A DNA stretch of 64,000 bases from Chiloscyllium plagiosum (GCF_004010195.1 NC_057719.1:34153042-34217041), one strand, 5' to 3'. Shown: positions 1 through 60,320, counted from the stretch's first letter. Translations and numbers: made by a program. The notes: generated by a model from the letters alone, not told the origin.

Positions 1-327
1 TTTCCTCATTTCCCCTTCCCCCACCTCACCCTAGTTCCAAACTTGCAGCTCAGCACTGTCCCCATGACTTGTCCTACCTGCCTATCTTCTTTTCCACCTG
101 TACACTCCACCCTCCTCCCTGACATATCACCTTCATCCCCTCCCCCTTTCACCTATTGTACTCCATGCTACGTTCTCCCCACCCCCACCCTTCTCTAGCT
201 TATCTCTCCATGCTTCAGGCTCTCTGCCTTTATTCCTGATGAAGGGCTTTTGCCTGAAACGTTGATTTTACTGCTCCTTGGATGCTGCCTGAACTGCTGT
301 GCTCTTCCAGCACCACTAATCCAGAAC
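1..327 (+). mobile_element. 3' end / pseudo-LTR of a Penelope-like element (family A)
   Basis: C-rich tract, then TAGCTTATCTCTCCATGCTTCAGG...CTGATGAAGGGCTTTTGCC; the same terminus follows PLE coding sequence at 40041-40208 and, in part, at 16610-16810. Confidence 0.8.
232..267 (+). ncRNA. Minimal hammerhead ribozyme (family A)
   Basis: ATTC-CTGATGA-A-GGGC TTTT GCCT-GAAA-CGTT-GATT: hammerhead core with stem II and palindromic ACGT stem III. Confidence 0.65.
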
Positions 328-542
328 CTCCTTACTCTTGTTTTAATACTTTGACTAATTAAGGCAAGTATTCCATATGCCTTCTTAACCACCTTATCTA
401 CCTATTTTACTGCTCCTTGGATGCTGCCTGAACTGCTGTGCTCTTCCAGCACCACTAATCCAGAACCTCCTTACTCTTGTTTTAATACTTTGACTAATTA
501 AGGCAAGTATTCCATATGCCTTCTTAACCACCTTATCTACCT
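265..542 (+). repeat. Perfect 139-bp tandem duplication (265-403 / 404-542)
   Basis: The two copies read as identical by direct comparison; the unit spans a PLE terminus and adjacent CR1-like sequence. Confidence 0.95.
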
Positions 543-1440
543 ATACTGCTGCCTTCAAATACCTTTGGACAATATCGATCACCCTTTCCATCAGTTTTCT
601 GATGATCAGGAATAGACTGACGGGGTGGTAATTGGCTGGGATTGTTGTTGGGGTTTAAAAGGGGGTTCAAGTTTTAACTGGATAGAACCATATATTGATA
701 ATTCATCACTATTTTCATGGGATTATAACTAACCTGTTCAGTTTCTTTCTGCTCAGTTGATTCCCATCCGACAGGTAAATCAGGGACTTCACATGCTTTA
801 ATGAAATCATTAGCTTTTACAGTAATACCAGATTAGTGAAGTTTAAGAGTCAGCACATTTTCTGAAGTGGATCATTGTGAAAATATTAGACCGAAGTGGT
901 GACTCTGCCCTGCCATTCCCAAGACAAAATTCAATGACTCCTTGTGTGTTCAAGTATTTGCAACTACTGACTGGCTGTCTGCGAATTCTTAGAGTGATAA
1001 TGTTTCTAAAGTGAAGAACTTACTTTCATGAAACTTGCTCTGCTCATGTCAAATCAGACCTTTTCCACCCTTGTTACTTTGAGTTATCTACACAACAATC
1101 CAGCCATCAGGTATGTTTTAAAGAAATAGAACAATAAGAAAACCATTTCAAGTTTCCAATCCAAATTTTCTTCCAAGGATTGAGATCCCACATATGTCAG
1201 ATTACATTTTCAGAACCAGAGAGAATTTTCAGTCATAATCATACCATTACATTACTCAGGAATGTACCAGCCCTTAATCTTTTCGAATGTTTTTAATGTG
1301 AAATTCTCAGTTCACAATGCTCATGTCTTTTTAATGTGAAGTCTATCAACAATATTCCCTGTCATGGAATAGGGTATTTTTGACAGCAATATCTGAGTGC
1401 CTATCTATCTCAGCATATTCTGAAAGCTACAGTCAGAATT

Positions 1441-1740: not shown

Positions 1741-3999
1741 TCCTCCATTTTAACAGTGAGGGTGGTTAACCTCACTTATATTCTCATCACAAAATCTAGG
1801 CCAATGAATTCAGCCTAATGAATGTATCTCTTAGAACAAAAGTGTTGTGTATTGTAACTTAATTTAAATTCACTTTGTAGTGTTAAACTAAAGGCTTCAG
1901 ATTTTTCTCGTGCCCTGTGGATTAGAGAGAGGATCATCTCACCACCTGTTTCTTAGCATCTGTGATGCTGTACATGACAGGAGATACAAAGGAACCATGC
2001 CTTGGGATATATAACGCATCTAGGCCGATCACATCATTCAATATAACTGGAAAAGAGCCACTGTCAAGGCATTTATGTTTAATCTGCACATAACCAGATG
2101 GGTAGCTATAGCCTGACATGGAATACAGAAAAAAAGACTTTGCATTTAATTTCCACCAGAATTGAGAAGCAGGAACTAACGCTTTGATAGATATGGCTAA
2201 GTATTTGTATTTTGCTGTCCTGGATAGAGAATAACAGAGAAACAACGCTATGGAACAATAATCAAATATTAGGTACCCATGGTAATGCTGTATATTTGGC
2301 TTAGGTTGCTGACATGATATGAGGCTGAGGTTTTCTCCACACCCAGAGCAAAGGGCACTCCAGAGCTTCATTCAGGAACATGTGTGTCATGTAGTCAACT
2401 GTGTGCTGTGATCACTAATGTCCTGACTTGCACACAATGTAGTGGACAATCCCATTCTGGATTTGGAATCTCGGATCAGGATTCAAGGGCTTAACATTGA
2501 CATTAAACTTGGTGCTGTTGAAAGACCTCAGGCTCAAAAATCAATATAGTTGGTTTCAGACTATAGGGATCATTATGTGTGATTACTCAGAAGCCAGGCA
2601 AGTTGATTTAGGCAGCAACCACCACGATTGCAGATGGCTTAGCGCTAAATATACAATTCACTGATTATAAACTCAAAAGGACATATATGTTCAGCTAAGG
2701 TTAGCATGAATTACAGCTAATTATCACTTCCTAAAAGGTAGCCTACACCTTTTAAGGATGAAATACATCTTGGCTGCAGCAGTTGCTGTAACTATCTCTG
2801 TAAGTGCATCTCATGAGGAAGAAAGGCAGAATTAACAAGATATAGAGAAGGCTCTTAGGTTCTCTGATGCAACACTGATTACTATTGGTGCAAAGGACTT
2901 GGATCAGGGCTTGAGTGGGATAGCACACAGAACACAGTTGATGGATGTGCACACAGGGTGTTTTGTGCCTTCCATAGGGACTCATGCCAATGTTACTGAT
3001 ATGGAAGAGATCACTTCAACTTGACGTAGAGCTCCATGCAGAGTTTGGAGCCCATCCTGTGCAGGATGGAAATGGTATTCACCTCCAGGGCAGCACCTGC
3101 ATACCCAGCCACAATACAGCATCTGAACGCAATTGCCCAGCTTCTATTGTATCACAAGAAGAAGCTGCCCATGACCTAAGGACTGCACTGTAAGCTCAAG
3201 TCAAGGTCATGAGGTCTCTGTTTCTTTCCTGCAGAGCCAGCTTGCTGTCATCCAGATTCTGACATCATGGGTTTTAATATACAAGTGCTCAAAGGGACTT
3301 GCAGGTTCTCATAAGTGTCCAAAAGGCAATGGTCCAGCAGAACACCAGGATTGCTGAAGCACTGCCCAGGGAGCGATACTATACCTTTTCTCAAAATGAC
3401 GGGACCCATGCTTCCACCATAGCTGCTGCCAAGGTCTCTCCGTCTGTTAACAAAGGCTGCTGATATGCAGGCCAAAATTAATGCTGACAAAGTTGGGCTC
3501 TCAAGACCCAGAGCTAGTCATCTGCAGAGTCCCATCCTGAGAGTCAGCAACCTTTAACCAGTCGTGCTGCAACCATTGGAGTTGCACTGATTAGCAACGG
3601 AACAGCAGATTGTGATGGTATGTAGAAGGGGATAATTGAATATTTTATATATTACTAGTAGTTTTGTTGGGTAAAGGTATTGTAGATTTTTTTTTGTGTG
3701 ATCTTTTATTTCATTTTGCCAAAATAGTAATGTAATGTTCATTAATAGAGAAGTTATAAGATGGACAACTGTGGAAAGTAATCTGGAGATTTTGTTCAGG
3801 GAAAATGGGGTCTGACGAACTACTCTCTGAAAGCTTGTTTGGAGAAATTATATCTCAAATACTTTCTCCCTTTTCCTCCTTTACATTTTCCTCCACTTCT
3901 TCATCCTCTTCCTCCTGGTAAACACCCCCCTGATTGCCTGCTGAGGTTCCCATAATGTTGAAACTAGCTACAAAGCCTAATATCACAGACCTCATTCAT

Positions 4000-5155
4000 T
4001 TCATAAGGCCATAAGGAATAGGAACCTGAGTAGGCCATTCAAACCCTTGAATCAGCTCCATCATTCAGTAAGATCATGGCTGATCCAACATTCCTCATGT
4101 CTACTTTCCTGTGCTTTCCTGTAACCCTTGATTCCCTACTGATCAAGAATCTATCTCAGTCTAAAATAAACACAAGGACTCTGCCATAGAGCTCTCTGCA
4201 GCAAGTAATTCACAAGACTCTGAGAAAGGAAATACCTCCCTATCTCGGTCTTAAATTGGCACCCCTTTCGTCTGAGACTATGTCCTCTGGCCCTAGACTC
4301 TCCCATGAGAGGAAACATCCTCTCAGTATTTATACTGTCAAACCCCTTAAGAATTCTGTAAATTTTATTGATAGCACCTTTCATTCTTCTAAACAACTTG
4401 TTTAGCCTTTGCTCATAAAACAATCCCTCCACACTGGAGATTATCTTAGTGAACCTGCTCTGAACTGCCTCCAGTGAAATGCTTTATTTCCTCAAATAAT
4501 GGGACCAAAACTGCTCACAGAAGTGGTCACAAAAGCACCTTGTAGATTGCAATAAGACCTCCCTACTCTTATATTCCAACCTCTTCCTCAACATTCCATT
4601 AGCCTTCTTGCTGTGCGCTAGCTTTCTGTGTTTTGTGCACAAGTATGCCCAAGTTCCCTTTGGCAGTTTTCTGCAGTTATCTCCACTTAAATAATGTCCT
4701 GTTTTCACTTTTTCCTATATTATACTCCACGTATCCACTTTTTGCCCACTTACTTAAGCTATCAATATCTTTCTGTAAACTGTCTGCATCTCCTCTACAA
4801 CTTGCCTTTCTAAACTACTTCTGTATTGTCTGCAAATTTGACTGCAGTACCTTCACTTCTTTCCTCCAAGTCATTCATAAACACTGATTCCTATGGAAAC
4901 ACATTGGTCAGAGGTTGTCAGCCTGAACACAAACCTTATCCCCACTCAGTGTTTCCTGCCCATTAGCCGATACTCCACCCATGCAAATATACTACCTCAG
5001 ACACTATGGGCTCTTATCTAAAGTCTAAACTCTTAGTGAGGCAACAGGTGTTTGGCTAATTAGCCTACAGTTACCTACTTTTCGCCTCTCTCCCTTTTTG
5101 AATAGGGGTGTCACATTGACAATTTTTAAATCTTCCAATACTTCTCCAGAATCTG
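4000..5155 (-). mobile_element. CR1 LINE remnant (internally deleted ORF2 plus 3' UTR)
   Basis: Peptides MEGLFYEQRL..KIYRILKGFD..SRARGHSL and NVTPLFKKG match CR1 ORF2. Confidence 0.85.
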
Positions 5156-5218
5156 AATCCTCCAGTTGGGAACAAGCTATAAAAGTGACTTCCTGTTTGT
5201 CACTTAGTTTTGCTTTTG

Positions 5219-5568
5219 GAGAAGCCAGTGTTGGACTGGGATGTATAAAGTTAAAAATCACACAACACCTGGTTATAGTCCAACAGGTTTAATTGGAAGC
5301 TGAAAAATGTGTTGCTGGAAAAGCGCAGCAGGTCAGGCAGCATCCAAGGAGCAGGAGAACCGACATTTCGGGCATAAGCCCTTCTTCAGGAATCCAGCAA
5401 CACATTTTTCAGCTCTGATCTCCAGCGCCTGCAGTCCTCACTTTCTCCCAGGTTTAATTGGAAGCACTAACTTTCGGAACGCTGCCTCTTCAGCCCAGCG
5501 CTCCGAAGGCTAATGCTTCCAATTAAACCTGTTGGACTATAACCTGGCATTGTTTGATTTTTAACTTG
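5219..5568. mobile_element. Family B short inverted-repeat PLE-terminus element
   Basis: GTTAAAAATCACACAACACC...AACAGGTTTAATTGGAAGC and its reverse complement; flanked by TTGCTTTTG (5210-5218 / 5569-5577). Confidence 0.8.
5301..5448. mobile_element. Family A element nested in family B; hammerhead on - strand (5358-5393)
   Basis: 17-bp TSD CAGGTTTAATTGGAAGC (5284-5300 / 5449-5465); reverse complement reads ATTC-CTGAAGA-A-GGGC TTAT GCCC-GAAA-TGTC. Confidence 0.85.
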
Positions 5569-5627
5569 TTGCTTTTGTGAGAGAAAGGGTGTCAATGAAA
5601 ATGATTAGATCCTTACTGATAGCCAGG

Positions 5628-5782
5628 TGGAAGTGGGTTCTGCAGATGTTGGAGATTATAGTCAAGATTAGAGTGGTGCTGGAAAAGCACAGCAGGTCAG
5701 GCAGCATCAAAGGAGCAGGAAAATCCATGTTTCAGGCAAAAGCCCTGATGAAGGGCTTTTGCCCAAAACATTGATTTTCCTG
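5628..5782. mobile_element. Family A element, partly inverted
   Basis: GTGGTGCTGGAAAAGCACAGCAGGTCAGGCAGCATC followed by inverted CTGATGAAGGGCTTTTGCCC at 5745. Confidence 0.75.
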
Positions 5783-6014
5783 ACTATCAGCTACTTAAGT
5801 CCATGCCCACATCTTTTACTTATGCTGGTTTTCCCAGGAAATTATCATGTTTATGCTGTTTTCACAAGAGTTACTATTCACCTTTCTCTGCACGTTGCAG
5901 GGGAGGAGAACATAATGATAGCAATGGACATGCCCAACAATTCTGTTTGCAATGAGGATCCCACTTTACATCATCAGACCTGTACAGACCCAGACGTTCA
6001 GGGCTTGCTCTAAC

Positions 6015-6185
6015 CTTTTTTGTCAAAAGACTGTAAATGAACTTTATGCATTGGATATGCATCAAACGCCCAATCCTTTTGATGTAGGTGTGTAATCCAA
6101 TTTCCATCAGCTTCAGGCCTCTCACACTGGTATTGCGCCAAACCATTTGTGCATCTAGCGTGAACCTCCATAGTACTAATTGCTT
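6015..6185 (-). other. Candidate 171-bp exon, product unknown
   Basis: Acceptor CCCCTGTTTTTAG|, donor AAG|GTTAGA, length 57 codons, open as KQLVLWRFTLDAQMVWRNTSVRGLKLMEIGLHTYIKRIGRLMHIQCIKFIYSLLTKK; no homolog recognised. Confidence 0.3.
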
Positions 6186-6554
6186 CTAAAAACAGGGGAC
6201 ATAAGTTGCAGCATAGTAAGCAAAACAGGTATACCTAGACTAGCAATCAGTAAGTAAACCATTACACAGCAATTTGCACAATTTCCTCTTGAGGAACCTG
6301 TTGAGGTCAACAAATGAGACTAACATGAGTGCCTCAACACCATTGTATGTACTGCAGTCCACAAAGTATCCATTTATTTAACAATACAGTTACATTTATC
6401 AAACACAACTAGTTTGCTTTACTGGATTATGTTTCTCTAACTACCCATTAGTTTTATCCGAATTACATGATGCCATCTGTAGCACAATCACATACCAATC
6501 TATTAATCAGTGCTTTGATGTCCAGCCAAAAGGGCAGGATTGCTTTTTTCTCAC

Positions 6555-6753
6555 CTTCTTACAGTTGGCTCTTGAAGTGATCACCAGGCATCTTAGCTCA
6601 TTAAGAAATGCGCGACTGGCATAATTTCAGATACATCATTAATGGACAGTTCTCTGCTTTTCACAATCAATTCTCTGTTGCACAAATTCAGTGACAGGCA
6701 AAACCCTGCCATCTGCTCTTTCCTTTGGTGGTTGTTTAAATTTGGAGAAGATT
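6555..6753 (-). other. Candidate 199-bp exon (non-coding or decayed)
   Basis: Acceptor TATTTTCACTCTTGCAG|, donor AAG|GTGAGA; all three frames contain stops. Confidence 0.25.
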
Positions 6754-6899
6754 CTGCAAGAGTGAAAATATCCCTTATGGTCTTGAATATTTTGTCTTCT
6801 AATGTTATTTTAAGTAACACTATAGTTAGCATTGGTTGACAGTATTACGTAGATGTGATAACAATAGATGTCACAGGTGTAGCACAGCACAGTCTTTTC

Positions 6900-7990
6900 A
6901 TTTGTAGCTAATCTAGGTAGATAGAACAAAAATCACACCATGTGGAGAATCCTTGGCTTAACAGTGATGAGCCACCTGCTTGAACCACTGCAGACTATCT
7001 GGTGAAAGCGAAATGTTGCTTATGGACATGGGATACTTCTGAACCTTTGGGGTTGTGAATGTTGTTGAAAATTCTGCAATCATCAGGGAAAATGCCCACT
7101 TCTGAACTTATGATGCAGTAAGGATCATCAATCAAATAGCTGAAGATGGTTGAGCTTGGAAAACAATCCTGGGGAACTCCTACAGTGATGTGTTGCATCT
7201 GAACCTCCAACCACCACAACCATCTTCCTCTGTGCTCAGTATAACTGCAATCAATGGAGAGCTTTCCCCCCATTCATACTGACTTTAATACTATTCCTGG
7301 GATTTTGTCAGGGCCCATAGCTTTTGCACCATCTGGTGCTTTCATCCATTTCTTGGTATCATGTGAAATGAGGAGAAAATGAGGACTGCAGGTGCTGGAG
7401 ATCAGAGTCAAAAAGTGTGGTGCTGGAAAAGCACAGCCAGTCTGACAGTATCCAAGGAGCAGGATACTCCTTGTTTCAAGCATAAACTCTTCTTCAGGAA
7501 TGTCACATTCCTGATGAAGAGCTTATGCTTGAAACGTTGACTCTCCTGCTCCTTGGATGCTGCCTGATTGGCTGTGCTTTTCTAGCACCACACCTTTTGA
7601 CTCTGATCGTGTGAAATGATTTGAATTGATTGAAGACTGGCATTTGTGATCTTGTAGACCTTAAAATGAGGCAGAGGTGGACCATCCATTTGGCATTTCA
7701 CAACTCCTGCTGCTGCCGCAGAATGGAAATTTGTGGCAAGACTGCACTGGTTTATTCTGACCAGTTTGTTGTGCCATTTTTTAAAATTTTCCATCTGTTG
7801 CATGCTGCCTCCATTATTTGGCATGTAAGTAATCCTTACTATAGTTTCACCAAGTTGACACCTTATTTTCAGGTCTAATTAGGTCCTGGTCCTGGAATGC
7901 TCTTCTGTACTCTTCATTAACCCTCTGGCTTGATAGCGATAGAAGAATGAGAAATCTACTGAGTTCTGAAGTTAGAGAATGTGGTTGAAT
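6900..7990 (-). mobile_element. Old CR1/L2-type LINE remnant
   Basis: GVPQD..FPDD and KAMGPDKIPGIVLK peptides typical of non-LTR RT. Confidence 0.65.
7372..7605. mobile_element. Family A inverted-repeat element; hammerhead at 7507-7542 (+)
   Basis: Arms inverted about ~7503; TSD ATC(A/G)TGTGAAATGA (7358-7371 / 7606-7619); CTGATGA-A-GAGC TTAT GCTT-GAAA-CGTT. Confidence 0.85.
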
Positions 7991-7999
7991 ACAATTCTG

Positions 8000-9658: not shown

Positions 9659-9739
9659 CGTGTCAAGAGTGTGGTGCTGGAAAAGCACAGCAGGTCAGAT
9701 AACATCCAAGGAGCAGGAGAGTCGACATTTTAGGCAAAT
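9659..9739 (-). mobile_element. Truncated family A element
   Basis: 11-bp TSD TGATTCCCCAA (9648-9658 / 9740-9750). Confidence 0.8.
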
Positions 9740-12236: not shown

Positions 12237-12418
12237 AATAAAAATGCTGGTATGCTAGAAATGCCTGCAAGCCAAGAACAAATTATGTATTCTTTAAAAT
12301 GCAGATGTTCTCTGCTGAACATTGGTGATGATGTGGAGATGCCGGTGTTGGACTGGGGTGTACAAAGTTAAAAATCACACAACACCAAGTCATAGTCCAA
12401 CAGGTTTAATTGGAAGCA

Positions 12419-12453
12419 CACTAGCTTTCGGAGTGACGCTCCTTCATCAGGTG
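12419..12453 (-). ncRNA. Minimal hammerhead ribozyme (family B)
   Basis: Reverse complement reads CAC-CTGATGA-A-GGAG CGTCA CTCC-GAAA-GCTA-GTG. Confidence 0.75.
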
Positions 12454-12526
12454 GTAGTGGAGGGCTCAATCCTAACACACAGAATTTGCTTTAAATTCTG
12501 TGTGTTAGGATTGAGCCATCCACTAC

Positions 12527-12561
12527 CACCTGATGAAGGAGCATCACTCCGAAAGCTAGTG
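12527..12561 (+). ncRNA. Minimal hammerhead ribozyme (family B)
   Basis: CAC-CTGATGA-A-GGAG CATCA CTCC-GAAA-GCTA-GTG: stem I CAC/GTG, palindromic AGCT stem III, CUA cleavage triplet. Confidence 0.75.
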
Positions 12562-12675
12562 TGCTTCCAGTTAAACCTGTTGGGCTATAACCTGGTGTTG
12601 TGTGATTTTTAACTTTGAACATTGGTGAAGCTGCTTTGTTGTTCAAATGTCTGTGTTTCTTTAAAATCAAAATAA

Positions 12676-14545: not shown

Positions 14546-15789
14546 TAGTGGACAGTAGTTGCAAATATTACAGTCCTACAGTTACAAGTAGTTACAGGAT
14601 CAAGTCTTTACACAATTTGCTATGATAACTAAAGATACATCATTCTTCATAATCCAGTATGACTATAGCATACAATTGTTACTCAAAACTCTTTGAACTA
14701 ATTTCACCTTTGATCTTTACATTTCATGCCTCCTGCCACAAAATCACAACATATCAGAAAGGATGGCATAACAAAAAGAAGCATTTAGCCTAACTCAACC
14801 TCTCCTGATTATTCTGTCATCATGATTATATGGTTCACCTAAACTTTTCCAATCAATTTGCTACTTTAAACGCAGTGACCAGATCAGCATCACTCAGACC
14901 TCAAGACTGAGATGGAATGACCTTCACGCATTATTTCAACTCTTTATCCTTGCATTAGGCCTGTCACAAAGTAATGCTGCTGTCATTAAGCTGTTTTAGC
15001 TCATCGTTTGCTGATCTGTTGAGCAGCCCGAGATGTCAAGGTACACAGGTAACATGAACTCTTATTCCCACGGGCTGAAGGGACTGACTACCCCAGCCGA
15101 CCTATCGTCTCAGCCTGCTCCTGCCCCACTGAATTAATCTCCATATACCTCAATAATGTCCCATCCCCCCTCGTCCAGGAACTCCTCACATACGTTCAGG
15201 ACACCACCCACGCCCTTCACCTTCTCCAAGGCTTCCATTTCCCTAGCCCTCAACACCTCATCTTCACCATGGACATCCAGTCCCTATACACCTCCACCCG
15301 CCATGACCAGGGCCTCCAAGCCCTCCGTTTCTTCCTCTCCCAACGTCCCCACCAGTACTCTTCCATTGACACTCTTATTCGTTTGGCTGATCTGGTCCTC
15401 ACCCTCAACAATTTCTCCTTCGAATCCTCTCACTTCCTCCAGACGAAAGGCGTAGCCATGGGCACCCACATGGGCCCCAGCTATGCCTGTCACTTTGTTG
15501 CCTACGTGGAACAGTCCATCTTCCACAGTTACACCGGCACCACTCCCCACCTTTTGCTCCACTACATTGTTGACTGCATCGGTGCCACCTCATGCTCCCA
15601 CAAGAAGGTTGAACAGTTCATTTACTTCACCAACACATTCCACCCTGACCTTAAATTCATCTGGACCATCTCTGACACTTCTCTCCCCTTCCTGGACCTC
15701 TCCATCTCCATCAAGAGTGACCAACTTAACACTGACATTTTCTACAACCCACTGACTCCCACAGCTACCTGGATTTACACCTCCTCCCA

Positions 15790-15920
15790 GGTAAAAACGA
15801 GGACTGCAGATGCTGGAAACCAGAGTCTAGATTAGAGTGGTGCTGGAAAAGCACCGCAGTTCAGGCAGCATCCGAGGAGCAGTAAAATCGACGTTTCGGG
15901 CAAAAGCCCTTCATCAGGCC
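15790..15920 (-). mobile_element. Family A element inserted antisense into a PLE; intact hammerhead core 15888-15917
   Basis: 15-bp TSD TTACACCTCCTCCCA (15775-15789 / 15921-15935); reverse complement CTGATGA-A-GGGC TTTT GCCC-GAAA-CGTC-GAT. Confidence 0.9.
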
Positions 15921-16257
15921 TTACACCTCCTCCCACCCTGCCTCCTGCAAAAATGCTATCCCTTATTCCTCCACCTCCATCGCATCTGCCCCCCAGGAAG
16001 ACCAGTTCCACCACAGAACACAACAGATGGCCTCCTTCTTTAAAGACCACAATTTCCCCTTCCACATGGTGGGTGATGCCTTCCAATGTATCTCATCCAC
16101 TTCCCGCACCTCCGCCCTTGAACCCCACCCCTCCAACTGCAACAAGGACAGCACCCTCCTGGAACTCACCTTCCACCCCACTAACCTCCGTATCCACCAC
16201 ATCATCCTTTGCCATTTCTGCCACCTACAGATATATTTCCCTCCCCATCCCCATCCG

Positions 16258-16609
16258 NNNNNNNNNNNNNNNNNNNNNNNNNNNNNNNNNNNNNNNNNNN
16301 NNNNNNNNNNNNNNNNNNNNNNNNNNNNNNNNNNNNNNNNNNNNNNNNNNNNNNNNNNNNNNNNNNNNNNNNNNNNNNNNNNNNNNNNNNNNNNNNNNNN
16401 NNNNNNNNNNNNNNNNNNNNNNNNNNNNNNNNNNNNNNNNNNNNNNNNNNNNNNNNNNNNNNNNNNNNNNNNNNNNNNNNNNNNNNNNNNNNNNNNNNNN
16501 NNNNNNNNNNNNNNNNNNNNNNNNNNNNNNNNNNNNNNNNNNNNNNNNNNNNNNNNNNNNNNNNNNNNNNNNNNNNNNNNNNNNNNNNNNNNNNNNNNNN
16601 NNNNNNNNN
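16258..16609. other. Assembly gap
   Basis: N run. Confidence 1.
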
Positions 16610-16811
16610 AACTATCACCTTTAACCCCACCTCCATCCACCTATTGCACTCTCAGCTACCTTCCCCCCAGCCCCACCACCCTCCCATTTATCTCTCCACC
16701 CCCAAGGCTCCCAGCTTCATTCCTGATGAAGGGATTTTGCCTGAAATGTTGATTTTCCTGCTCCTTGGATGTTACGTGACCTGCTATGCTTTTTCAGCAC
16801 CGCACTCTTGG

Positions 16812-18480: not shown

Positions 18481-18519
18481 TCCAGTTACTGTAGGAAAAT
18501 CAGGAGTACATCAACCATA

Positions 18520-21262: not shown

Positions 21263-21289
21263 GCTGGCTCTTCACGAGTGTCATCTCAT

Positions 21290-30166: not shown

Positions 30167-30291
30167 GAGGAGAAAGTGAGGTCTGCAGACGCTGGAGATC
30201 AAAGCTGAAACTTTATTGCTGGAACAGCACAGCAGGTCAGGCAGCATCTAGGGAACAGAAGATTCGACGTTTCGGGCACATGCCCTTCTTC
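30167..30291 (-). mobile_element. Family A element ending in the hammerhead core
   Basis: 13-bp TSD AAGAGCCACCCAG (30154-30166 / 30292-30304); reverse complement TGAAGA-A-GGGCA TG TGCCC-GAAA-CGTC-GAATC. Confidence 0.9.
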
Positions 30292-30459
30292 AAGAGCCAC
30301 CCAGAACAACTAGAAGCCCTGACTGGAAAATTGCAGTCTGAAGATTTGGTGATAAACCTTGCCAGAAGTAACTTTACAAAACCACAGGTAATCTATTTCA
30401 TGTGTAGAGTAGAACATAGACAAGTGCTGGCAAGAATGAATGATGAATGATGAATAACG

Positions 30460-34693: not shown

Positions 34694-34777
34694 GGAGAAA
34701 GTGAGGACTGCAGATGCTGGAGATCAGAGCTGAAAAATCTGTTGCTGGAAAAGCGCTTTTCCAGCAACACAGTTTTC
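34694..34777. mobile_element. Minimal fold-back family A insertion
   Basis: 14-bp TSD ACTATCTACACTGA (34680-34693 / 34778-34791); perfect palindrome TGTTGCTGGAAAAGCGCTTTTCCAGCAACA. Confidence 0.9.
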
Positions 34778-34821
34778 ACTATCTACACTGAACCTAGCAG
34801 CCAAAAACAAATGACTACCAT

Positions 34822-35260
34822 TGTGTCCATAAATCACAGGCTATATCCATATGTATCCTTACATATAGATGAGGAAGGACACCACTTCAACTGGGACAAC
34901 ACATCTATCCTCGGACAAACCAAACAGAGACATACACGAGAATTCTTTGAAGCATGACATTCCAACTGGAACTCTATCAACAAACACATTGATTTGGATC
35001 CCATTTACCACCCCCTGAGAAAAAGAACAGGAAATGACATCACCATGGGAAAAAATGTAACCACAGGAAATGACATCACCAACCGTAGGAAACTCAAACA
35101 TGTAAATAGAAAGCGGGCTACACAAGCAGTGCTTCATTCAGAGGCTCACTGAAGATGTTACCTAGTATGGTGATGAAATGTCTGAAAATGAACTTTCCAG
35201 CTCAGCAAGAAAACCTACATCCAGAACCTCAGCCTAAGCTGCAAATCTTCTCAAAACTCC
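34822..35260 (+). mobile_element. Penelope/Poseidon-like PLE 3' end (family C)
   Basis: GIY-YIG C-terminal segment HHFNWDNTSILGQTKQRHTREFFEA*HSNWNSINKHIDLDPIY followed by a hammerhead. Confidence 0.8.
35146..35185 (+). ncRNA. Minimal hammerhead ribozyme (family C)
   Basis: TCA-CTGAAGA-T-GTTACC TAGTAT GGTGAT-GAAA-TGTC-TGA; the two deviations are consistent with CpG decay. Confidence 0.7.
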
Positions 35261-35560: not shown

Positions 35561-35778
35561 TAAAAACATCACACAACATCAGGTTATAGTCCAACAGGTT
35601 TATTTGGAAGCACTAGCTTTCAAAGTGCAGCTCCTTTATCAGGTGCTTCATCAGGCACCACCTGATGAAGAAGCAGAGCTTCGAAAGCTAGAGCCTCCAC
35701 ATAAACCTGTTGGACTATAACCTGGTGTTGTATGATATTTAACTTTGTCCACCCCATTCTAACACCAGCACCTCCAAA
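35561..35778. mobile_element. Family B inverted-repeat element; hammerhead 35659-35693 (+)
   Basis: TSD TGATGAAAAGT (35550-35560 / 35779-35789); CAC-CTGATGA-A-GAAGC AGA GCTTC-GAAA-GCTA. Confidence 0.85.
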
Positions 35779-38450: not shown

Positions 38451-40208
38451 ACTCATAGTCCGGGAACCCCACACTGCCAAGTTCTACCTCCTTCCCAAGA
38501 TCCACAAGCCTGACCACCCTGGCCGACCCATTGTCTCAGCATGGTCATGCCCCTACTGAACTCATCTCTACCTACCTCGATACTGTCCTATCCACCCTAG
38601 TCCAGAAACTACCCACATACGTTCGAGACACCACCCATGCCCTCCACCTCCTCCAAGACTTCCGTTTCCCCGACCCCCAACGTCTCATCTTCACCATGGA
38701 TATCCAATCCCACTACACCTCCATCCGCCATGACCAGGGCCTCCATGCCTTCTGTTTTTTCCTTTCCAGACATCCCCAACAGTACCCTTCCACCAACACT
38801 CTCATTCGTTTGGCCGAACTGGTCCTCACCCTTAACAATTTCTCCTTTGAATCCTCCCACTTCCTCCAGACCAAAGGGGTAGCCATGGGCACATGTATGG
38901 GCCCCAGCTATGCCTGTCTCTTTGTTGGCTACATAGAATCTAATCTAATCTAGTAATCTTCCGTAATTACACCGGCACCACTCCCCACCTATTCCTCCGC
39001 TACATTGATGACTGCATTGGCGCCACCTCGTGCTCCCGCGAGGAGGTTGAGCAATTCATCAACTTCACCAACACATTCCACCCTGACCTTAAATTTACCC
39101 GGACCATCTCTGACACCTCCCTCCCCTTCCTGGACCTCTCCAACTCCATNNNNNNNNNNNNNNNNNNNNNNNNNNNNNNNNNNNNNNNNNNNNNNNNNNN
39201 NNNNNNNNNNNNNNNNNNNNNNNNNNNNNNNNNNNNNNNNNNNNNNNNNNNNNNNNNNNNNNNNNNNNNNNNNNNNNNNNNNNNNNNNNNNNNNNNNNNN
39301 NNNNNNNNNNNNNNNNNNNNNNNNNNNNNNNNNNNNNNNNNNNNNNNNNNNNNNNNNNNNNNNNNNNNNNNNNNNNNNNNNNNNNNNNNNNNNNNNNNNN
39401 NNNNNNNNNNNNNNNNNNNNNNNNNNNNNNNNNNNNNNNNNNNNNNNNNNNNNNNNNNNNNNNNNNNNNNNNNNNNNNNNNNNNNNNNNNNNNNNNNNNN
39501 NNNNNNNNNNNNNNNNNNNNNNNNNNNNNNNNNNNNNNNNNNNNNNNNNNNNNNNNNNNNNNNNNNNNNNNNNNNNNNNNNNNNNNNNNNNNNNNNNNNN
39601 NNNNNNNNNNNNNNNNNNNNNNNNNNNNNNNNNNNNNNNNNNNNNNNNNNNNNNNNNNNNNNNNNNNNNNNNNNNNNNNNNNNNNNNNNNNNNNNNNNNN
39701 NNNNNNNNNNNNNNNNNNNNNNNNNNNNNNNNNNNNNNNNNNNNNNNNNNNNNNNNNNNNNNNNNNNNNNNNNNNNNNNNNNNNNNNNNNNNNNNNNNNN
39801 NNNNNNNNNNNNNNNNNNNNNNNNNNNNNNNNNNNNNNNNNNNNNNNNNNNNNNNNNNNNNNNNNNNNNNNNNNNNNNNNNNNNNNNNNNNNNNNNNNNN
39901 NNNNNNNNNNNNNNNNNNNNNNNNNNNNNNNNNNNNNNNNNNNNNNNNNNNNNNNNNNNNNNNNNNNNNNNNNNNNNNNNNNNNNNNNNNNNNNNNNNNN
40001 NNNNNNNNNNNNNNNNNNNNNNNNNNNNNNNNNNNNNNNNTAGCTTATCTCTCCATGCTTCAGGCTCACTGCCTTTATTCCTGATGAAGGGCTTTTGTTC
40101 GAAACGTCGATTTCGAAGCTCCTTGGATGCTGCCTGAACTGCTGTGCTCTTCCAGCACCACTGATCCAGAATCTGGTTTCCAGCATCTGCAGTCATTGTT
40201 TTTACTTC
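38451..40208 (+). mobile_element. Penelope-like element (same family as 15085) nested in CR1; hammerhead 40077-40112
   Basis: FYLLPKIHKPDHPGRPIVS, FTMDIQS, GVAMGTCMGPSYACLFVGY, RYIDD; terminus CTGATGA-A-GGGC TTTT GTTC-GAAA-CGTC. Confidence 0.92.
39150..40040. other. Assembly gap
   Basis: N run. Confidence 1.
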
Positions 40209-44140: not shown

Positions 44141-44149
44141 AATCTTCTT

Positions 44150-48529: not shown

Positions 48530-49170
48530 AGAGTATTGTTTACAATTCTGGACACCCTGCTATAGGAAGGACATTATTAAATTGGAGAGGGTTCAGAAAA
48601 GATTTACCAGGATGTTGCTGGACCAGGAGGGTTTGAGTTGTAAAAATATATTGGATAGGCTGGGACCTTTCTCACTAGAGCATAACATTGGAGTGGAGTG
48701 ACTTTATAGAGGTTTATAAAATCATGAGGGACATGGATCAAGTAAATAGCTAAGTTCTTCATTCTAGGGTGAGGTAGTCCAAACTGGAGGAGGTCGGTTT
48801 ATGGTGATTGGAGAAAGATTAACAAGGGACCTGAGGGGCAACTTTTTCACAAGTGGTTCACAAGTGGAATGGACTGCCAGAGGAAGTGGTCGATACAGAT
48901 ACAGAAGAAGGGCTTATGCCCGAAACGTCGATTCTCCTGCTCCTTGGATGCTGCCTGACCTGCTGCACTTTTCCAGCAACACATTTTTCAGATACAGATA
49001 CGGTTATAACATTTAAAAGATGTTTGGACAGGTACATGAAAATGAAAGGTTTAGAGAAATATGGGCCGAATGCAGGCAAGTGGTAGTAATTTAGTTTGGG
49101 AAACATGGTCAGCACAAATGAGTTAGGACCAATCATCTGTGTCCGTGCTTTTTGACTGTATGACTCTATC
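48530..49170 (+). mobile_element. CR1 3' end
   Basis: DLRGNFFT, WNGLPEEVV..TFKRCLDRYM..YGPNAGKW; (ATGACT) tail. Confidence 0.8.
48903..48990 (+). mobile_element. Family A element starting within the hammerhead core
   Basis: 11-bp TSD GATACAGATAC (48892-48902 / 48991-49001); GAAGA-A-GGGC TTAT GCCC-GAAA-CGTC-GAT. Confidence 0.88.
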
Positions 49171-49394: not shown

Positions 49395-49492
49395 TGGATG
49401 ATACAAAGTTAAAAATCACACAACACCAGATTATAGTCCAACCAGGTTTAGTTGGAAGCACTAGCTTTCAGAGCACTGCTCCTTCATCAGGT
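49395..49492 (-). mobile_element. Single-arm family B element ending at the hammerhead
   Basis: Reverse complement CTGATGA-A-GGAGC AGT GCTCT-GAAA-GCTA-GTG. Confidence 0.8.
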
Positions 49493-50919: not shown

Positions 50920-51920
50920 ATGTGTTATGCTGATGACACCCAGGTCTACCACACCCTCAACTCTTCTGACTTCTCCACACTTGCTAAATTATCATTTGGC
51001 TTATTTGACATCCAGTACAGGGTGAGCGTAAATTTCCTCCAATTTTATTTTAGGAGGACAAAAATCACTGTTTTTGGCCCAGTTCTACATTTAGTTCATC
51101 TCTCACCCCAACAACAATATTAGAGTAAATCAAACTTGTTTGTAATGTCCTGATCACAATTGACGATTTGAAGACAGTTTTCTGACCACAGATTCACAGT
51201 TTCACAAAGAATATTTTTATCCACCTCTGTAAGATTATTCAATTGGACCTTATCACTGTTGCCGAAACTTTCATTCGTGTCTTTGTTACCTCAAGATTTG
51301 ACTATTGCAAAGCAGTGCCACACCCAACACAAACACAACAGCTCAACCCCTGACCTAACCACTGTAAACTCGTAGAGCCCTGGACCTCAGTTACTGGGCA
51401 CTGACGGAATTCCTGTCCCAGTCCCTGTTGCACTGACCTGCATTGACTCCTGTTCAATCAGTATTTGGTTTTAAATTTCTCCGAATCGATAGCGAATGAT
51501 GCTGGAATGAGGCAGCATCTGATGAACAATAGAGTTGACGTTTCGGACAGGACCCTTCATCAGTCCTGCTCCTCAGATGCTGCCTAACCTGCTGTGCTTT
51601 TTCCAGCGTCACACTTTATCTAGTCTGAATCTCCAGCATCTGCAGTCCTCATTATCTCCCTTCTAAATTTCTCATCCTTGTTTCTAAATTCATCCATGAC
51701 CTTGCTTCCTCACCATCTCTGTCATCTCAACCCTCTGAGATATCATTACTGAATTCTGAACTTCTCAGTATCTCAGACTTTAATCATTCCACAGTGGCTG
51801 TTCTTTTAGTTATGTCTCAGTTCAATTTCCTTCCTCAAAATATGCCTTAAGTTCTCTCGCCCTTTCACTAAGCATTTGGACAACTGAGTAAATGCCTCCT
51901 TGTGTATTTTGGTATCATAC
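50920..51920 (+). mobile_element. L2-clade LINE remnant
   Basis: FMCYADDTQVY; ETFIRVFVTSRFDYC; LH*LL..FKFLILV motifs. Confidence 0.75.
51482..51663. mobile_element. Family A element, partly inverted
   Basis: TSD TAAATTTCTC (51472-51481 / 51664-51673); hammerhead remnant on - strand 51533-51563. Confidence 0.8.
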
Positions 51921-54722: not shown

Positions 54723-54954
54723 ACGAGTGGTTTGTTATCAGATCAAAAGGAAAGTCCCATGATCAATTCAGACCTAACTAAATGAAACCGGCTTGTGTAG
54801 CATGTGTTTAATAATGTCTGCTTGGCCTATTTAAGACTACTCCAGTCTCAGAATCTCTATCATATTATTTAAAATGTAAATTCTTAATGAGCTTTCTGTA
54901 CAATCACTATTTTGCTGTATAGACATGAGTAGAACACATGGGTCACATCACAAG

Positions 54955-56430
54955 ACATGGAAAAATAAGTGGAAGCAGGTATAGGCCATCCGGCCCATCA
55001 CGGGTGATCTGCTATCTCAACCCATACTCACCCCATTATCCCTTGAAGCATTAAGTATCTAGAAATCTCTTTTTCTTTCTGAAAGATATTTGTTGCCTTG
55101 ACCTCCACAGCCTTATATGGTAGACAATTCTACAGGTTAATCACCCTCTGAATGGAGGAATTTCTTCCCATCTCAGCTTTAATGGACTACTGTATATCCT
55201 GAGGCTGTGGACCCTTGCACTAAAGTGTCCCTCCCTTGCTAATTCTCCACGATGCCAGCATCAGAAACATCAAACTCTACATCCAATCTGACCATTCCTG
55301 ACCATCTGACCAGAACTTTATATGTTTCAGTGAAATTTCCTCTCTGTTCTGAAATCAAGTGGATACATGTCGGATCCTCGGATACATCCTCAGATGCTAC
55401 CTGACCGGCTGTGCTTTTCTAGCACCACACCTTTTGACTCTGATCTCCATATCTGCAGTCCTCACTTTCTCCTAGTTGTATACATGTCCAGGTGACCAAA
55501 TCACTCTTCATATAACCAGCCTGCCATCTCTGGCATGTCTGGTGAACTTTTGTTATGCTCCCTTTATGACACATATATCATTTCATTATAAAGGAAACCA
55601 AAGCCTCACACAACACTCCAGGTGCGGTCTCAGCAAAGCCTCTACAACTGCAGTATGACACCTGGATCCTGTACTTAAATCCTCTTGCAATAAAGGCCAA
55701 TATACCATTTGCTTCATAACTACTCACTGTACCTGCATGCTTGCTTTCAGTGATTGGTGTACAAGGACACTCAGGTCTCTTTGTGCACCAACATTTCCCA
55801 GTCAAATATGATTTAAAGCATACTCTGCCATTCTGTTTTTCCTATCAAAGTGGATAACATCATACATAATCATGTTACACAGCATCTGTCATGTACTTGT
55901 CCACTCACTCAACTTCTCTACATTACCTTGAAGCCTCTTTGCAACATCCTCATCATGCACAGTCTTCCCTAATTTTATGTCATCAGAAAATCTGGAAATA
56001 TTATACCAGATTCCCTCATCCAACTTGTTGATGTATGTTGTGAATAGCTGGGTCCCAAACAATCCCTGCAGTACCTAACGAGTCACTGTCTTCCTCAGAA
56101 AAACAGACTTTCTGATTCCTAACTTGTTTCCGGTCGCTAACCAATTCTCAATCCATGCCAGTATATTACTTCCAATGCCATGTTCTTTAAAATTGATCAC
56201 TAACCTGCAATCAAAAGATTTCTGAAAATCCAAATACACTAAATTGACTCATTCTCCTTTTTCTATTCTGTCTGCTTGAGCATCCCTAGTTTAGTTTGTT
56301 AGCTATGGTTGGACCACTTTTCCTCGTGTGAATTTGCACCTGATAGGAATATACAACAGTTCCCGTGCTTCTTAAATATTCACCACTACCTGACCACCAT
56401 CACACCTTTTAGTGAACCTGCCAAATCTAT
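54955..56430 (-). mobile_element. CR1 remnant
   Basis: ANGILAFIARGFKYR; 3' UTR at ~54960. Confidence 0.75.
55372..55479 (+). mobile_element. Family A fragment
   Basis: TSD ATACATGTC (55363-55371 / 55480-55488); ends CTGCAGTCCTCACTTTCTCC. Confidence 0.75.
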
Positions 56431-59221
56431 ATCATGTGGATTTTAAGAGACTACAGTTGGAGACACTTTATGTATACTTGGTCACCATGGACACTACAAG
56501 TTGCTCTGACTTCCCACACATACAGGAGAATCATTCCACCTGGTCAAACTGTCCAACAGTGACTCACATTTAAATTAATCCCAAATGTTTATTTCCTTAA
56601 TTTAAAAATATCAAGTACTGTATACATTTATTATTCCTTACCTGACTTCTCAAACTTTTGTTTAGATGAAGCAATGTTTAAGGACCAACAGCTGCCCAAC
56701 AGCTAATCAATTCAGAACTTTTCTGTGATGCCTGTCTTGGATTGTGGTTTTCAAACTTTGCTCAGTTGCCAAGTGGTGTCCCATTTTGCTCAGTTATCCT
56801 TCTGCCCTGAGAAGGCCCTGAGCTCTAGGGCAAATTTATTGTCTCTCTCCAGTCAGGTTAGACCATAGTCTCATTCTTCTCAGTTGTAACTCTTCCTGTC
56901 TCTGCCAAGTCTCCAATTACCTTGGTAACCATCCTTAGTTACATCTCTTGTTCATAATGCCAGTACATTTCAATTTAATTTTACACAGTTTTTGGCTCAA
57001 TAAATGTATGTTTTGAATCATTGAAGTGGGTCTTTTATTGCATCATTTTTCACTGTTAATGCTGCAAATGTGATATTTGGTGTATGAAACACATAAAATG
57101 GTCTCTGTTTATCTTGATTCAGGGTTAATCTTGAATTCTCCTTTTAATCTAGTGATCTAATGTGCTGTGTCGCTGAGCCACGAAAGGACATTTAAGAAAA
57201 AGTATGGTAATGTATGAAATTACTGATCTGAGTGTGAGGGATAGACATCACAATCACTTGAGATTTAAAAAGCCAGTGGGTATGAAGGCAAGCGCAACAG
57301 AAAATGCAGTGCTTTCTGATCTTATTATCTTTGAGGATTGACTAAAACCCTTCCAGTACAATTTCACAATCCTCTAGGAGTCACTAGTAATCAGAATGGA
57401 AAGCTCAATGGTTGCAAAAACATTAAGCTTTTAATTCTGCTCATTTGAAATTTAAATGTTATACAATGCCCATTTACAGAGAATAAAAACACATTGAAGA
57501 AGATTCATGCTTTGCTCTACCAGAATTATTCAGATAATTTACTGAATGCTCAATGTTATGCACTTAACAGGCTTTGCAAACAACGCTGTGGAGCTACAAT
57601 AAAAAAGGAGAATGTTGGCAAGCTGCTCTGGCAGCATCTGTTCCAACTGATGTATGCTTAATGACTGCTATGGATTAAACACAAAAGCATTATAACAAAG
57701 GTGTAGATCACATGTCTCTGACAAGTCACTGTAGGTAAGACACTTTTAATCAACATGTTCAGATATTTTATAATATGCTACTAGAGTAAGTGGGTCTTGA
57801 AGCCAGGCCTTCTGGACCAGAGGCAACAACAATACCACTGTGCCATAAGAGGACCAGTTGCTAAGTAAATGTACAGTTGCATTTTTTAAAACAGCCCCTT
57901 TTTCATTAAAACAATTGCATGCACTACTATTTGCAGTTACAATTTATATAAGTTACACTATATATGTGATCACTAAAAGCATCATTAATTAAAGAAATGA
58001 TGTGTTAACTCAAGAACATTTCACTACTGCCATACAAGTCTCCTAGTGAAGCATGTGCATTTGTCCCTTCACTATTCATCTGGTATCTGCTCACCCCTAA
58101 AGTGGAGACCTTCATCTCTTCTTGGACATCACAGTAAGTACTTGCTGATTTGCCCTTTAAATAATGCTTGAATTAAGTTGCTTAGCATTGTCTCCAACTG
58201 CAGTTCAAGCACCAAGTGGGTGGAGGGTAGTTTTACCCATGAGGCAGGTTAAAGCAGAAGAGACACTGAGGGTGGGCAAGGCTTGGGCTCTGTCTGTCCA
58301 GCAGTGTGCCACTGTCAGCAGGGAGGTGCGGGTTGGGGGAGGGGAATTGCATTATCTCTCTCATGATGGAAGGATGGGTTTTACATTCCTGTCCTGCGAC
58401 ACTCAGGGCTGGAAAGGTTCACCAGGGAGCTGGCTGTCCAAACATGGTGTCCCATCCCAATGAGATCCCATAAGATCATGGGAACGTAGCATATTGTGAG
58501 CTGATATCATCTCATGATGTCTGAGTGATGGACACAGCTGTGGAGAAAGGGAGATACATTCAATCCATAAATGTCCTGTTAACCCAGACCAATCATCACA
58601 AGGTCTGCAAGCTCTGGAATGCCAGCAGGAAGCTCCTGACTAACAGGGAAGGGTTGGAGAGAGGTGTGTTGGTGGCCAGGGGTGGAATTTTATAATATTA
58701 TATCAGCTGTAAGGATCTGAAAGGGTTAATGCTGAGGACTGCATTAAGCACTGCCCAGTATAATTACAGTTATAAATCAGGCCAGACCCCCTCAAAATAT
58801 TTCAAGAAGATAACCTAGACCCTACATTTTTCATATTTTAAAGACAGATGTGAAGTGGATATTCCAGGTGTGATGCAAATGGTCAAACCACTCAGCTTTA
58901 AGCAAAACAGAATTTGTTTAAATGCTCCAGACATTTCGACACCTCTGCCTTTACGATGTCTCTGTAAAGAATTCCAATGACAAAATAATCATCTAAAAGT
59001 GACAGCATTGCCCAATTAGGAAATTTACAGATTACACAAAAATTGGAGTGTTATTGATAATGAGAAGGACTGTCTCTAGCTATCGTCTAGTATTGATGTG
59101 CTCATAAATTGGGCAGAGCAATAACAAATGGAATTTAATACTGATAAATGTGAGGTGATGCTTGTGGGGAGGTCTAATAGGAAAGGATTTAATCATGAAT
59201 TGTAAGTCCCCAGAGAGTAGG

Positions 59222-60320
59222 AGATTGTGAGGACCGCAGGTGCTGGAGACTCAGAGTTGATAAAATGTGGCGCTGGAAAGATCACAGCAGGTCAGCCAGC
59301 ATTTGAGAAGCAAGAGAATCAACATTTCAGGTAGGACACTTCATCATGACTGGGCGTGGAAAGGGGGATGAGAAATAAATAGGAGGATGGGGATTGGGAC
59401 TGGGACAAAGGTGAGTGGGATGGTAATAGATAGATGCAGGTAGGAGCTGGTTTTGATAGGTTGGTGGGAAGGATGTACCAGATAGGTGGGAAGGAAGATG
59501 GACAGTTGGGTCAGATCAAGAGTGCGGTACCAAGTTAGAGGGTTGTTGTCTCGGATGGGGTGGGGGGATTTGGAAACTAGTGAATTCAATATAGATGCTG
59601 TTGATGCTGTGTGGTTGTAGATTCCCAAAGCGGAAGATGAGGTGTTCTTCCTCCAGTTTAAGGGTGGCCTTGTTTAAGCAGAGGAGACCCAGAATGGACA
59701 TGTCATCAGGGAGTGAGAGGATGAGTTGAAATGGATGGCCACTGGAAGTTGGAGTTAGTTGATGCCAGAGATATTCCCTTAGCTGTTCCGTGAGTTTAGC
59801 CTTGGTCTCTCTGATGCAGAGGAGACCACAACGAGTACCATGGATGCAATAAATGAAGTTCAAGGATATGCAAGTAAAGGGGGGGAAGGGTGGCCAGGTT
59901 TGGAGCGGGGATTGGTGGGCAACAGAATCTAACAAGGGGGTCGCATAGCGAACGGTCACTATGGAATGCAGATAGGTGTGGGGAGGGAAATATATTTTTG
60001 GTGATGGAGTCTGACTGTAGATAGTGAAAATGACAGAGGGTGAAGTGCTGGATTTGGAGATTGGTGAGCTGGAATGTGAGGACTGGGGGAAGTCTATCCT
60101 TGTTGTGGTTAGTGGATGTGAGTTCGAGGGCTGAGGTGCAGGAAATGGAGGAGACACGATTGAGGCCATTGTAGATCATAGGGGAGGGGGAATTACATTC
60201 CTTGAAGTAGGAGGACATCTGAGATGTCCTGGAGTGGAATCGTTCATCCTGAGAGCAGATATGGTGAAGGCGGAGGAATTGAGAACAAGGGATTGTGTTT
60301 TTCCAGGAGGCCAAGTGGGA
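59222..60320 (-). mobile_element. Penelope-like element 3' half
   Basis: KNTIPCSQFLRLHHICS; IYCIHGTRCGLLCIRETK; KLEEEHLIFRFGNLQPHSIN; family A terminus. Confidence 0.88.

Follow-up and report, generated by a model that had tools for sequence, protein, structure and literature searches.

We analyzed a 64,000-nucleotide (nt) stretch of the genome of the shark Chiloscyllium plagiosum (GCF_004010195.1 NC_057719.1:34153042-34217041; hereafter, the window), in which hammerhead ribozyme cores recur in three families of sequences, A, B and C. Sequence comparison identifies all three families as the pseudo-long terminal repeat (pLTR) ends of protein-coding Penelope-like elements (PLEs). We propose that the short inserts found alongside the PLE remnants are pLTRs of these elements, likely laid down anew by the parent reverse transcriptase (RT)-endonuclease (EN) as it copies the front of a capped mRNA. 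A separate non-autonomous, retrozyme-like system, which an earlier reading of the same window (the original prediction) had invoked, is not supported: the inserts are stubs of ordinary PLEs, yet they are not random truncations.

Hammerhead cores and their coding parents

Eleven sites in the window satisfied a descriptor of the ribozyme core (CTGAnGA, an optional extra nt, a stem of at least 4 bp with G-U pairs allowed, then GAAA nn T H), compared with a mean of 0.03 (maximum 1) in 100 dinucleotide shuffles, which bears out the original prediction of cores in three families. Additional cores at 5745, 7497, 16723, 5493 and 35654 are more decayed. By their layout, with core, stem II, palindromic remnant of stem III and stem I, these sequences are minimal type I hammerheads, and the 11 cores uphold the earlier placement of such ribozymes in PLE pLTRs. 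Stem I is short, at 3-4 bp, and in subfamilies A1 and A2 it contains a U-U mismatch; the ribozyme fold is the minimum-energy fold in subfamily A3 only, and one head-to-head pair of inserts folds into a single hairpin of -230.6 kcal/mol in which both cores are buried. An Rfam search gave zero hammerhead matches at E<=1 and microRNA-like matches on the hairpin at 12439-12541 only; a microRNA identity was rejected for these matches, which are that hairpin.

The family A parent is represented by a locus (L107) with a 725-aa frame matching RVT_1 (E 2.8e-6) and GIY-YIG (E 6.5e-4), both slightly below curated cut-offs, followed by an untranslated region (UTR), the core and a tail. Its RT yielded 32,055 first-look candidates, four family A remnants in the window match it at 66-91%, and the family A protein matched no solved structure. 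The frame upstream of the family C core matches an RT-bearing copy (L301; RVT_1 E 2e-8) with a homologous EN end. For family B, a GIY-YIG coding end lies 540-920 nt before the family B end at four loci (L015, L027, L251, L281), its similarity to family A being limited to the EN end and linker (32% over 38 aa), and no B-linked RT was seen among the family B copies examined. The original prediction had placed A and C at PLE ends, which stands, and B is now found to be a PLE end as well; its broader claim of PLE origin and insertion by PLE machinery is supported. A cysteine cluster in the RT-EN linker is present in L107 (A) and L015 (B) and was not seen in L301, the relative of family C. This motif distinguishes Neptune from Penelope/Poseidon (PMC8557442), and its pattern here points tentatively to Neptune for A and B and to Penelope/Poseidon for C. 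Family C itself comprises several subfamilies that differ in stem II (L259, L301, L246) and also forms head-to-head pairs (L246).

Behind the ribozyme, the family A tail runs on into the 5' UTR and the start of the open reading frame (ORF) in 748 exact matches, a continuation seen for A only, and the probable start codon lies ~45 nt past the tail end. Because the tail continues into the ORF start, a stub is at once one unit's 3' end and the following unit's front, in the manner of known pLTRs.

Random sampling of 80 stretches of 10 kb at arbitrary positions, 758 kb once gaps are excluded, gave 90 family A, 29 family B and 11 family C insertions, or one per 5.8 kb, close to the very high density of about one insert per 5 kb that had been predicted; 66 cores in these stretches satisfied the descriptor. 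Extrapolation from this sample to the 3.56-Gb genome gives ~0.6 million insertions. One exact family A pattern had 86,254 genome-wide matches and its reversed control 0. More divergent family A-like tails with different upstream sequence, seen at L015, L074, L079 and L065, represent further PLE families and lie outside these counts.

Ends of the inserts

An insert consists of one arm or of two arms placed head to head. As the anchor for 435 family A and 115 family B arms we used a motif that lies downstream of the ribozyme cleavage site, and we extended the arms upstream against the subfamily consensus, with C3 of the core as position 0. Left out were 80 of the 435 A arms, which belong to older subfamilies with no usable upstream consensus; the other 355 comprised 61 long arms (at least 100 nt of UTR), 42 running into gaps, 106 single arms and 146 in pairs. 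The set was partly enriched for intact cores and held a few duplicates. The 5' ends pile up at -5..-3 in family A (69 of 252 arms, 5.2 expected if uniform over -99..+44) and at -11..-2 in family B (46 of 97, 6.7 expected if uniform), some 32-37 nt upstream of the cleavage site; ends within 1 nt of the cleavage site itself number 7 of the 252 in A and 3 of the 97 in B. When random loci only are counted, the 5' end is no more than 12 nt from the start of the core in 32 of 36 A arms and 11 of 21 B arms. Roughly half of all arms comprise nothing but the pLTR and have a fixed 5' end, and loose ends at -4 and at both 3' sites described below were also present in independent contigs and RNA reads aligned to one A2 copy. 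With these peaks at -4 in A and ~-8 in B, the non-random 5' ends implied by the original prediction are supported. Both 5' ends consist of a pyrimidine followed by A, and the family A context fits the initiator consensus. A splice acceptor at this boundary, an idea suggested by the D. virilis intron, was rejected, as no AG precedes the end and the bases before the extra G described next vary.

Many of these ends carry an extra G. Counts were made by hand on the first 100 listed genome-wide matches to each pattern, the patterns excluding the template base and one upstream base. A G replaced the template C before the A2 end at -4 in 49 of the 100 listed junctions (4,280 matches; ~27 expected, p 1e-6), the other rows including 13 fold-back centres and 9 apparent mutated long copies, and it preceded a B-subfamily end at -8 in 87 of the 100 listed (884 matches; ~27 expected, p 1e-36). 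At a control end, -2, a G stood in 11 of the 100 listed, and about half of the rows were the same G junction seen from the opposite strand. Some of these Gs are accounted for by microhomology to the partner arm, but among B junctions lacking GA homology, 35 of 41 kept the G (p 3e-9). Nineteen G loci were read whole: the G was in neither the target nor the partner arm in ~9, was shared with the partner or target in ~9, and belonged to a mutated long copy in 1. At L305 both arms bear the G, flanking a 2-nt filler. An untemplated 5' G has likewise been interpreted as a copied cap in full-length L1 insertions (PMC9341517), and the G-bearing ends probably mark where the parent mRNA physically begins, probably with a cap and with its ribozyme uncut.

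The 3' ends are bimodal, the two sites being separated by 33-37 nt: family A arms end near +88-93 or +123-126 and family B arms near +81-84 or +117-121. Head-to-head pairs follow a consistent composition: 75 of 82 joined one long and one short arm, 7 joined two short arms and none joined two long arms. Both arms belonged to the same subfamily in 79 of the 82 pairs, and a two-site variant was common to both arms in 29 of 32 A2 pairs, where 38% would be expected. The target-site duplication (TSD) measured 12-16 bp in 53 of 79 pairs, with a mode of 15. In 31 of 51 A pairs it is the short arm, not the tailed one, that extends further 5', and single arms use the short and the long 3' site equally often; simple fold-back copying is therefore insufficient to explain the inserts.

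Relation to retrozymes and separate lineages

Animal retrozymes are head-to-tail repeats whose RNA is cleaved and circular (PMC7229834; 10.64898/2026.07.22.740005). Of 163 tandem arrays found in 120 loci of 10 kb (1.2 Mb), none held a hammerhead core, and the 5' ends of the inserts lie upstream of the ribozyme rather than at the cut site, two results that contradict the retrozyme-like system of the original prediction. A pattern ending at the cut site had 366 genome-wide matches, mainly in GA-homology contexts, versus 4,280 for the end at -4 (the filters differed); cleavage-defined 5' ends were rejected as a candidate, there being a weak excess at most and the listed cut-site matches being mostly GA-homology contexts. 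Matches to a control at a neighbouring position were mostly point mutants, with about 25 of 100 judged true ends by eye. Two further expectations of the original prediction also failed. Instead of excess conservation of the core over its flanks, 46 random A arms showed equal decay of both (12/460 vs 22/1088, p 0.45); an apparent excess arose from the sample enriched for intact cores and was gone in random loci. Instead of diagnostic mutations marking the short copies as subfamilies, all 16 variant classes with at least 3 copies were found in long (UTR-bearing) and short arms alike. Junction signatures were distinct in 72 of 79 palindromes, and the one that recurred five times did so with different variants and different short-arm ends. 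These comparisons draw on a few hundred arms, among which small lineages could escape. In a sample partly chosen for intact cores, 0 of 40 non-CpG sites in the core carried a shared variant, compared with 15 of 114 sites elsewhere, which suggests selection in source elements and neutral decay in copies.

Head-to-tail mini-tandems of internally deleted units were observed at loci L321-L350 (for example L331/L332, L323 and L338), L331/L332 being a trimer with a core in every unit. In 25 of 30 listed rows (28 loci) with a continuing tail, 57-490 nt of ORF start follow and then another pLTR. The junctions vary by locus, clustering near -77, with two or three restarting at ~-4; among A1 mini-tandems, three ends fall at +28, one of them explained by homology. 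The mini-tandems look like template jumps during insertion and are candidate retrozyme seeds, fitting the idea of a pLTR origin put forward in the preprint 10.64898/2026.07.22.740005.

Features of the window

For most of its 12 listed inserts the original prediction had claimed TSDs of 9-17 bp; an exact direct repeat of this length precedes all 12 insert starts and recurs at the opposite end (Table 1). Head-to-head inverted pairs, a layout absent from the original prediction, account for seven of the 12 (5219, 5301, 7372, 12329, 34694, 35561 and 51482), and the remaining five are single arms. The core is absent from three (9659, 34694 and 55372), two start within it (30167 and 48903), and in 5219 it is decayed. 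Stand-alone inserts of A and B exist as predicted, and outside the window family C, too, forms short and inverted inserts (L246 and L269).

Table 1 Hammerhead cores, inserts and PLE remnants in the window.
Feature	Position	Strand	Details
Family A cores	236+, 5389-, 7511+, 15917-, 40081+, 51563-		Pass the descriptor
Family B cores	12450-, 12530+, 35662+, 49490-		Pass the descriptor
Family C core	35149+		Passes the descriptor
Family A (A1) PLE 3' end	1..329	+	Coding end, 3' UTR, core 236, short 3' end; 88% identity to RT+GIY-YIG copy L107 over 336 nt
Core-less A1 piece	404..468	+	Product of exact 139-bp tandem duplication (265-403 / 404-542), no separate insertion
Family B head-to-head pair	5219..5568	.	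Decayed core; 9-bp TSD; holds the 5301 insert
Family A (A2) head-to-head pair	5301..5448	-	Nested in B pair; core 5389; one arm starts at -4 after G; 17-bp TSD
Family A head-to-head pair, absent from the original list	5625..5782	.	Decayed core 5745; no TSD found
Older family A head-to-head pair	7372..7609	.	Cores 7511+ and 7497- (decayed); 10-bp TSD
Older family A single arm	9659..9739	-	Without core; 11-bp TSD
Family B head-to-head pair	12329..12615	.	Cores 12450-, 12530+; tail on one arm only; 13-bp TSD; single long hairpin fold
Family A PLE remnant	15084..16809	+	RT to 3' UTR, internal assembly gap; decayed core 16723 at end
Family A single arm inside the 15084..16809 RT remnant	15790..15920	-	Intact core 15917, tail; 15-bp TSD
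Family A (A3) single arm with tail	30167..30291	-	Starts within core; 13-bp TSD
Family A (A2) head-to-head pair	34694..34777	.	Without core; 14-bp TSD
Family C PLE remnant	34805..35260	+	Broken endonuclease C-terminus, UTR, core 35149, tail; 59% aa identity over 61 aa to RT-bearing L301
Family B head-to-head pair	35561..35778	.	Core 35662+; 11-bp TSD
Family A (A1) PLE remnant	38452..40207	+	RT, assembly gap, UTR, core 40081, full tail; 91% identity to L107 over 703 nt; weak Pfam RVT_1 match
Family A (A2) single arm without tail	48903..48990	+	Starts within core; 11-bp TSD
Family B single arm	49399..49492	-	Core 49490; no TSD found
Older family A head-to-head pair with filler	51482..51663	.	Core 51563-; 10-bp TSD
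Older family A single arm with tail	55372..55479	+	Without core; 9-bp TSD
Old family A PLE remnant	59219..60326	-	Decayed core near 59350; tail

Insertions are nested at 5219-5568 (an A2 pair within a B pair) and at 15084-16809 (an A arm within an A-family RT remnant), and like nesting occurs at several loci. The exact 139-bp tandem duplication at 265-542 covers the A1 3' end and flank and is either real or an assembly artefact. At 30049-30386 (+), the A3 insert and its 13-bp TSD (138 bp) lie in frame and stop-free within an open frame with splice-like edges; for this candidate host exon, zero Pfam or protein matches were returned by a search restricted to longer proteins. Two other repeats were noted: a near-identical 132-nt repeat, its copies 217 nt apart, at 13087-13435 within a long interspersed nuclear element RT remnant (13418-14567, minus strand), and a 95-nt inverted repeat (99% complementary, 944 nt apart) at 62091-63224 that is possibly a young DNA transposon or miniature inverted-repeat transposable element.

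Discussion

We propose the following route for the likely de novo insertion of these pLTRs. Transcription of the parent would start 4 nt (A) or ~6-11 nt (B) upstream of the core, and the extra G would be a copied cap or reflect a C added at the template end. The EN would nick both target strands ~15 bp apart, and on the same RNA each nick would prime at one of the two start sites, which lie a short way downstream of the ribozyme; from these internal sites the RT would copy ~90-135 nt to the capped mRNA front. Microhomology would join the 3' ends of the two cDNAs into a head-to-head pair, and a single arm would mean that only one cDNA was retained. Long copies may come from priming at a downstream pLTR on an RNA that is tandem, circular or a read-through product. 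In nearly all templates the ribozyme would be uncut, and it is probably functional only in source elements, in dimeric or protein-assisted form; the inserts are likely dead ends. In the twin priming of L1, two target strands reportedly prime on one RNA and produce an inversion, which resembles our head-to-head pairs, but L1 primes at its poly(A) tail and at an upstream internal site and its arms barely overlap, whereas here both arms copy one 5' segment from two fixed sites.

A more specific scheme, to which we give slightly less than even credence, would take the stubs as a record of PLE insertion itself: one RT-EN dimer would nick the two target strands ~15 bp apart, prime a single capped mRNA at two fixed sites separated by 33-37 nt and copy from both as far as the cap, 4-8 nt ahead of a hammerhead left uncut. 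A single reaction would then yield the stubs as well as the inverted pLTR and the tail on one side, the ribozyme would act as a self-decapping switch at the front of the mRNA, and jumps onto the ORF start would seed mini-tandems.

Several observations weigh against de novo insertion from a capped mRNA. The 5'-end sample was partly enriched for intact cores and omitted the 80 A arms of older subfamilies; B ends are spread across several positions and the B upstream consensus is mixed. The G is missing from half of the A2 ends at -4, and many of the junctions that have it share 1-3 nt of homology with the partner arm or target as well. Arms with the same variant fit one RNA, but equally two RNAs of one source locus or later gene conversion, and copying of the unit would also be expected to give the one junction that 5 of 79 pairs have in common, in the same polarity. 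A raw RNA run (X19; 1,857 reads) showed no pile-up of molecule starts or ends, although this was a poly(A) single-cell library ill-suited to the purpose; 93% of its reads continue into unlike sequence, as expected of inserts within host transcripts. A further run (X20) contained no matching reads, and none were obtained with the front end of family A1 either.

The inserts might instead be ordinary 5'-truncated PLE copies formed when the RT stalls at the ribozyme and the cDNA folds back and copies itself (self-priming, Arkhipova et al. 2013). High 5' truncation and inverted pLTRs are standard for PLEs (PMC8557442, PMC3846280), both arms carry common variants, the A peak at -4 falls on the outer edge of stem I, and perfect fold-back centres make up 13 of the 100 listed A2 junctions at -4. 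Stalling, however, adds no G, let alone on both arms as at L305, and the B peak at -8 lies outside the 3-bp stem I. A copy of a tailed cDNA could not reach further 5' than its template, as the short arm does in 31 of 51 A pairs, a copy of a short cDNA cannot yield the tail, and single arms use the short and long sites equally often. We consider this origin unlikely. Quite unlikely, in our judgement, are SINE-like (short interspersed nuclear element-like) non-autonomous lineages, in which short copies would keep an internal promoter, restart at the same site and be re-mobilised in trans. The defined 5' ends at a probable start site and the one junction seen five times would suit such lineages, as would the internal promoter within the pLTR of D. 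virilis Penelope (PMC2377424) and the putatively non-autonomous PLE derivatives of Chlamydomonas (PMC8557442). Against them, 16 of 16 variant classes include both long and short copies, distinct junction signatures mark 72 of 79 palindromes, and the five recurring junctions differ in variants and short-arm ends; by analogy, moreover, the Anolis protein requires a downstream segment at the ORF start (PMC11167929), and the inserts, which end at the start sites, are without it.

True animal retrozymes, in which tandem hammerhead repeats give self-cleaved circular RNAs that the PLE enzyme re-inserts, would share the minimal type I cores with palindromic stem III and could build on the head-to-tail mini-tandems of two or three pLTRs, and a preprint describes tandem retrozymes derived from pLTRs in one chondrichthyan genome (10.64898/2026.07.22.740005). 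This reading is contradicted by the lack of a core in all 163 arrays, by inserts that are single or head to head, by the scarcity of arms starting within 1 nt of the cut site (7/252 A, 3/97 B), by the GA-homology contexts of most of the 366 cut-site matches (against 4,280 at -4, under different filters), by copies with no core excess (12/460 vs 22/1088, p 0.45) and by mini-tandem junctions that vary between loci, and we regard it as very improbable. We retain fresh insertion by the parent PLE enzyme as the likely source of the inserts.

Much of this architecture has precedents. Start sites within the pLTR are known for D. virilis Penelope (PMC2377424) and a Chlamydomonas element (PMC8557442), and an inverted, 5'-truncated pLTR with a one-sided 30-40 bp tail and TSD has long been known for PLEs (PMC3846280, PMC8557442). 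Like EN-bearing (EN+) PLEs (Neptune; Penelope/Poseidon), the shark families have parents with an RT plus GIY-YIG at the C terminus, a hammerhead in the pLTR, a head-to-head copy, a tail on one arm (33-37 nt here), TSDs and partial tandems. They differ from the rotifer EN+ examples in their TSD peak (15 bp here, 8-10 bp there), and from EN+ PLEs described so far in those sources in that pLTR-only arms make up about half, with a fixed 5' end, an extra G and ~0.6 million insertions. Purified Poseidon from Anolis carolinensis cuts and extends both strands, with two internal start sites bounding the tail; it is modelled as a dimer that uses uncut RNA, and its ribozyme cuts only with protein present (PMC11167929). 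Two start sites bounding the tail, cutting and extension of both strands, an uncut RNA template and a tail continuous with the ORF start are, on the reading proposed here, common to both systems, whereas the Anolis ORF starts within the ribozyme and the probable family A start codon lies ~45 nt past the tail end; two-armed inserts, capped templates or an extra G are not described in the available text of PMC11167929.

The cores share with metazoan PLE hammerheads (Cervera and de la Pena 2014, PMC4209133) the extra nt before stem II, the palindromic stem III remnant and the short stem I. Those motifs are mostly single, dispersed and ascribed to truncated PLEs, with some close opposite-strand pairs, as here; the available text includes no shark families, and family A alone, with 86,254 exact matches, far exceeds the 2,000-9,000 motifs of fluke, coelacanth and frog. 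With animal non-LTR retrozymes (PMC7229834; Li et al. 2026, 10.64898/2026.07.22.740005) the inserts have in common a type I hammerhead, a non-coding nature and a relation to pLTRs. Unlike those head-to-tail repeats, with a ribozyme per unit and circular RNAs, the shark inserts are single or head to head and start upstream of the ribozyme. A literature search, outside which lay Repbase, Dfam, most subscription papers and the supplements of the preprint, found no description of these shark families; within the same reach of subscription papers, neither a cap-derived G nor dual priming in PLEs was found.

The elements are new, very abundant families within a known retrotransposon class. The origin of the tandem and inverted structures of PLEs and of their tail has been called still undefined (Craig et al. 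2021, PMC8557442); what the present data add is the extra G, the rule of one long and one short arm and the shared variants, from which together we infer a testable model of PLE insertion. The value is mechanistic, only one PLE having been reconstituted so far, and the end statistics predict for a reconstituted PLE a capped template, an extra base, one long and one short arm and a 15-bp stagger. A transcription start just before the ribozyme would reframe the possible role of the ribozyme as cap removal or 3'-end trimming, not circle making. With ~0.6 million insertions, many of which would give hairpins of 100-140 bp if transcribed, these elements may also give this genome a large supply of double-stranded RNA.

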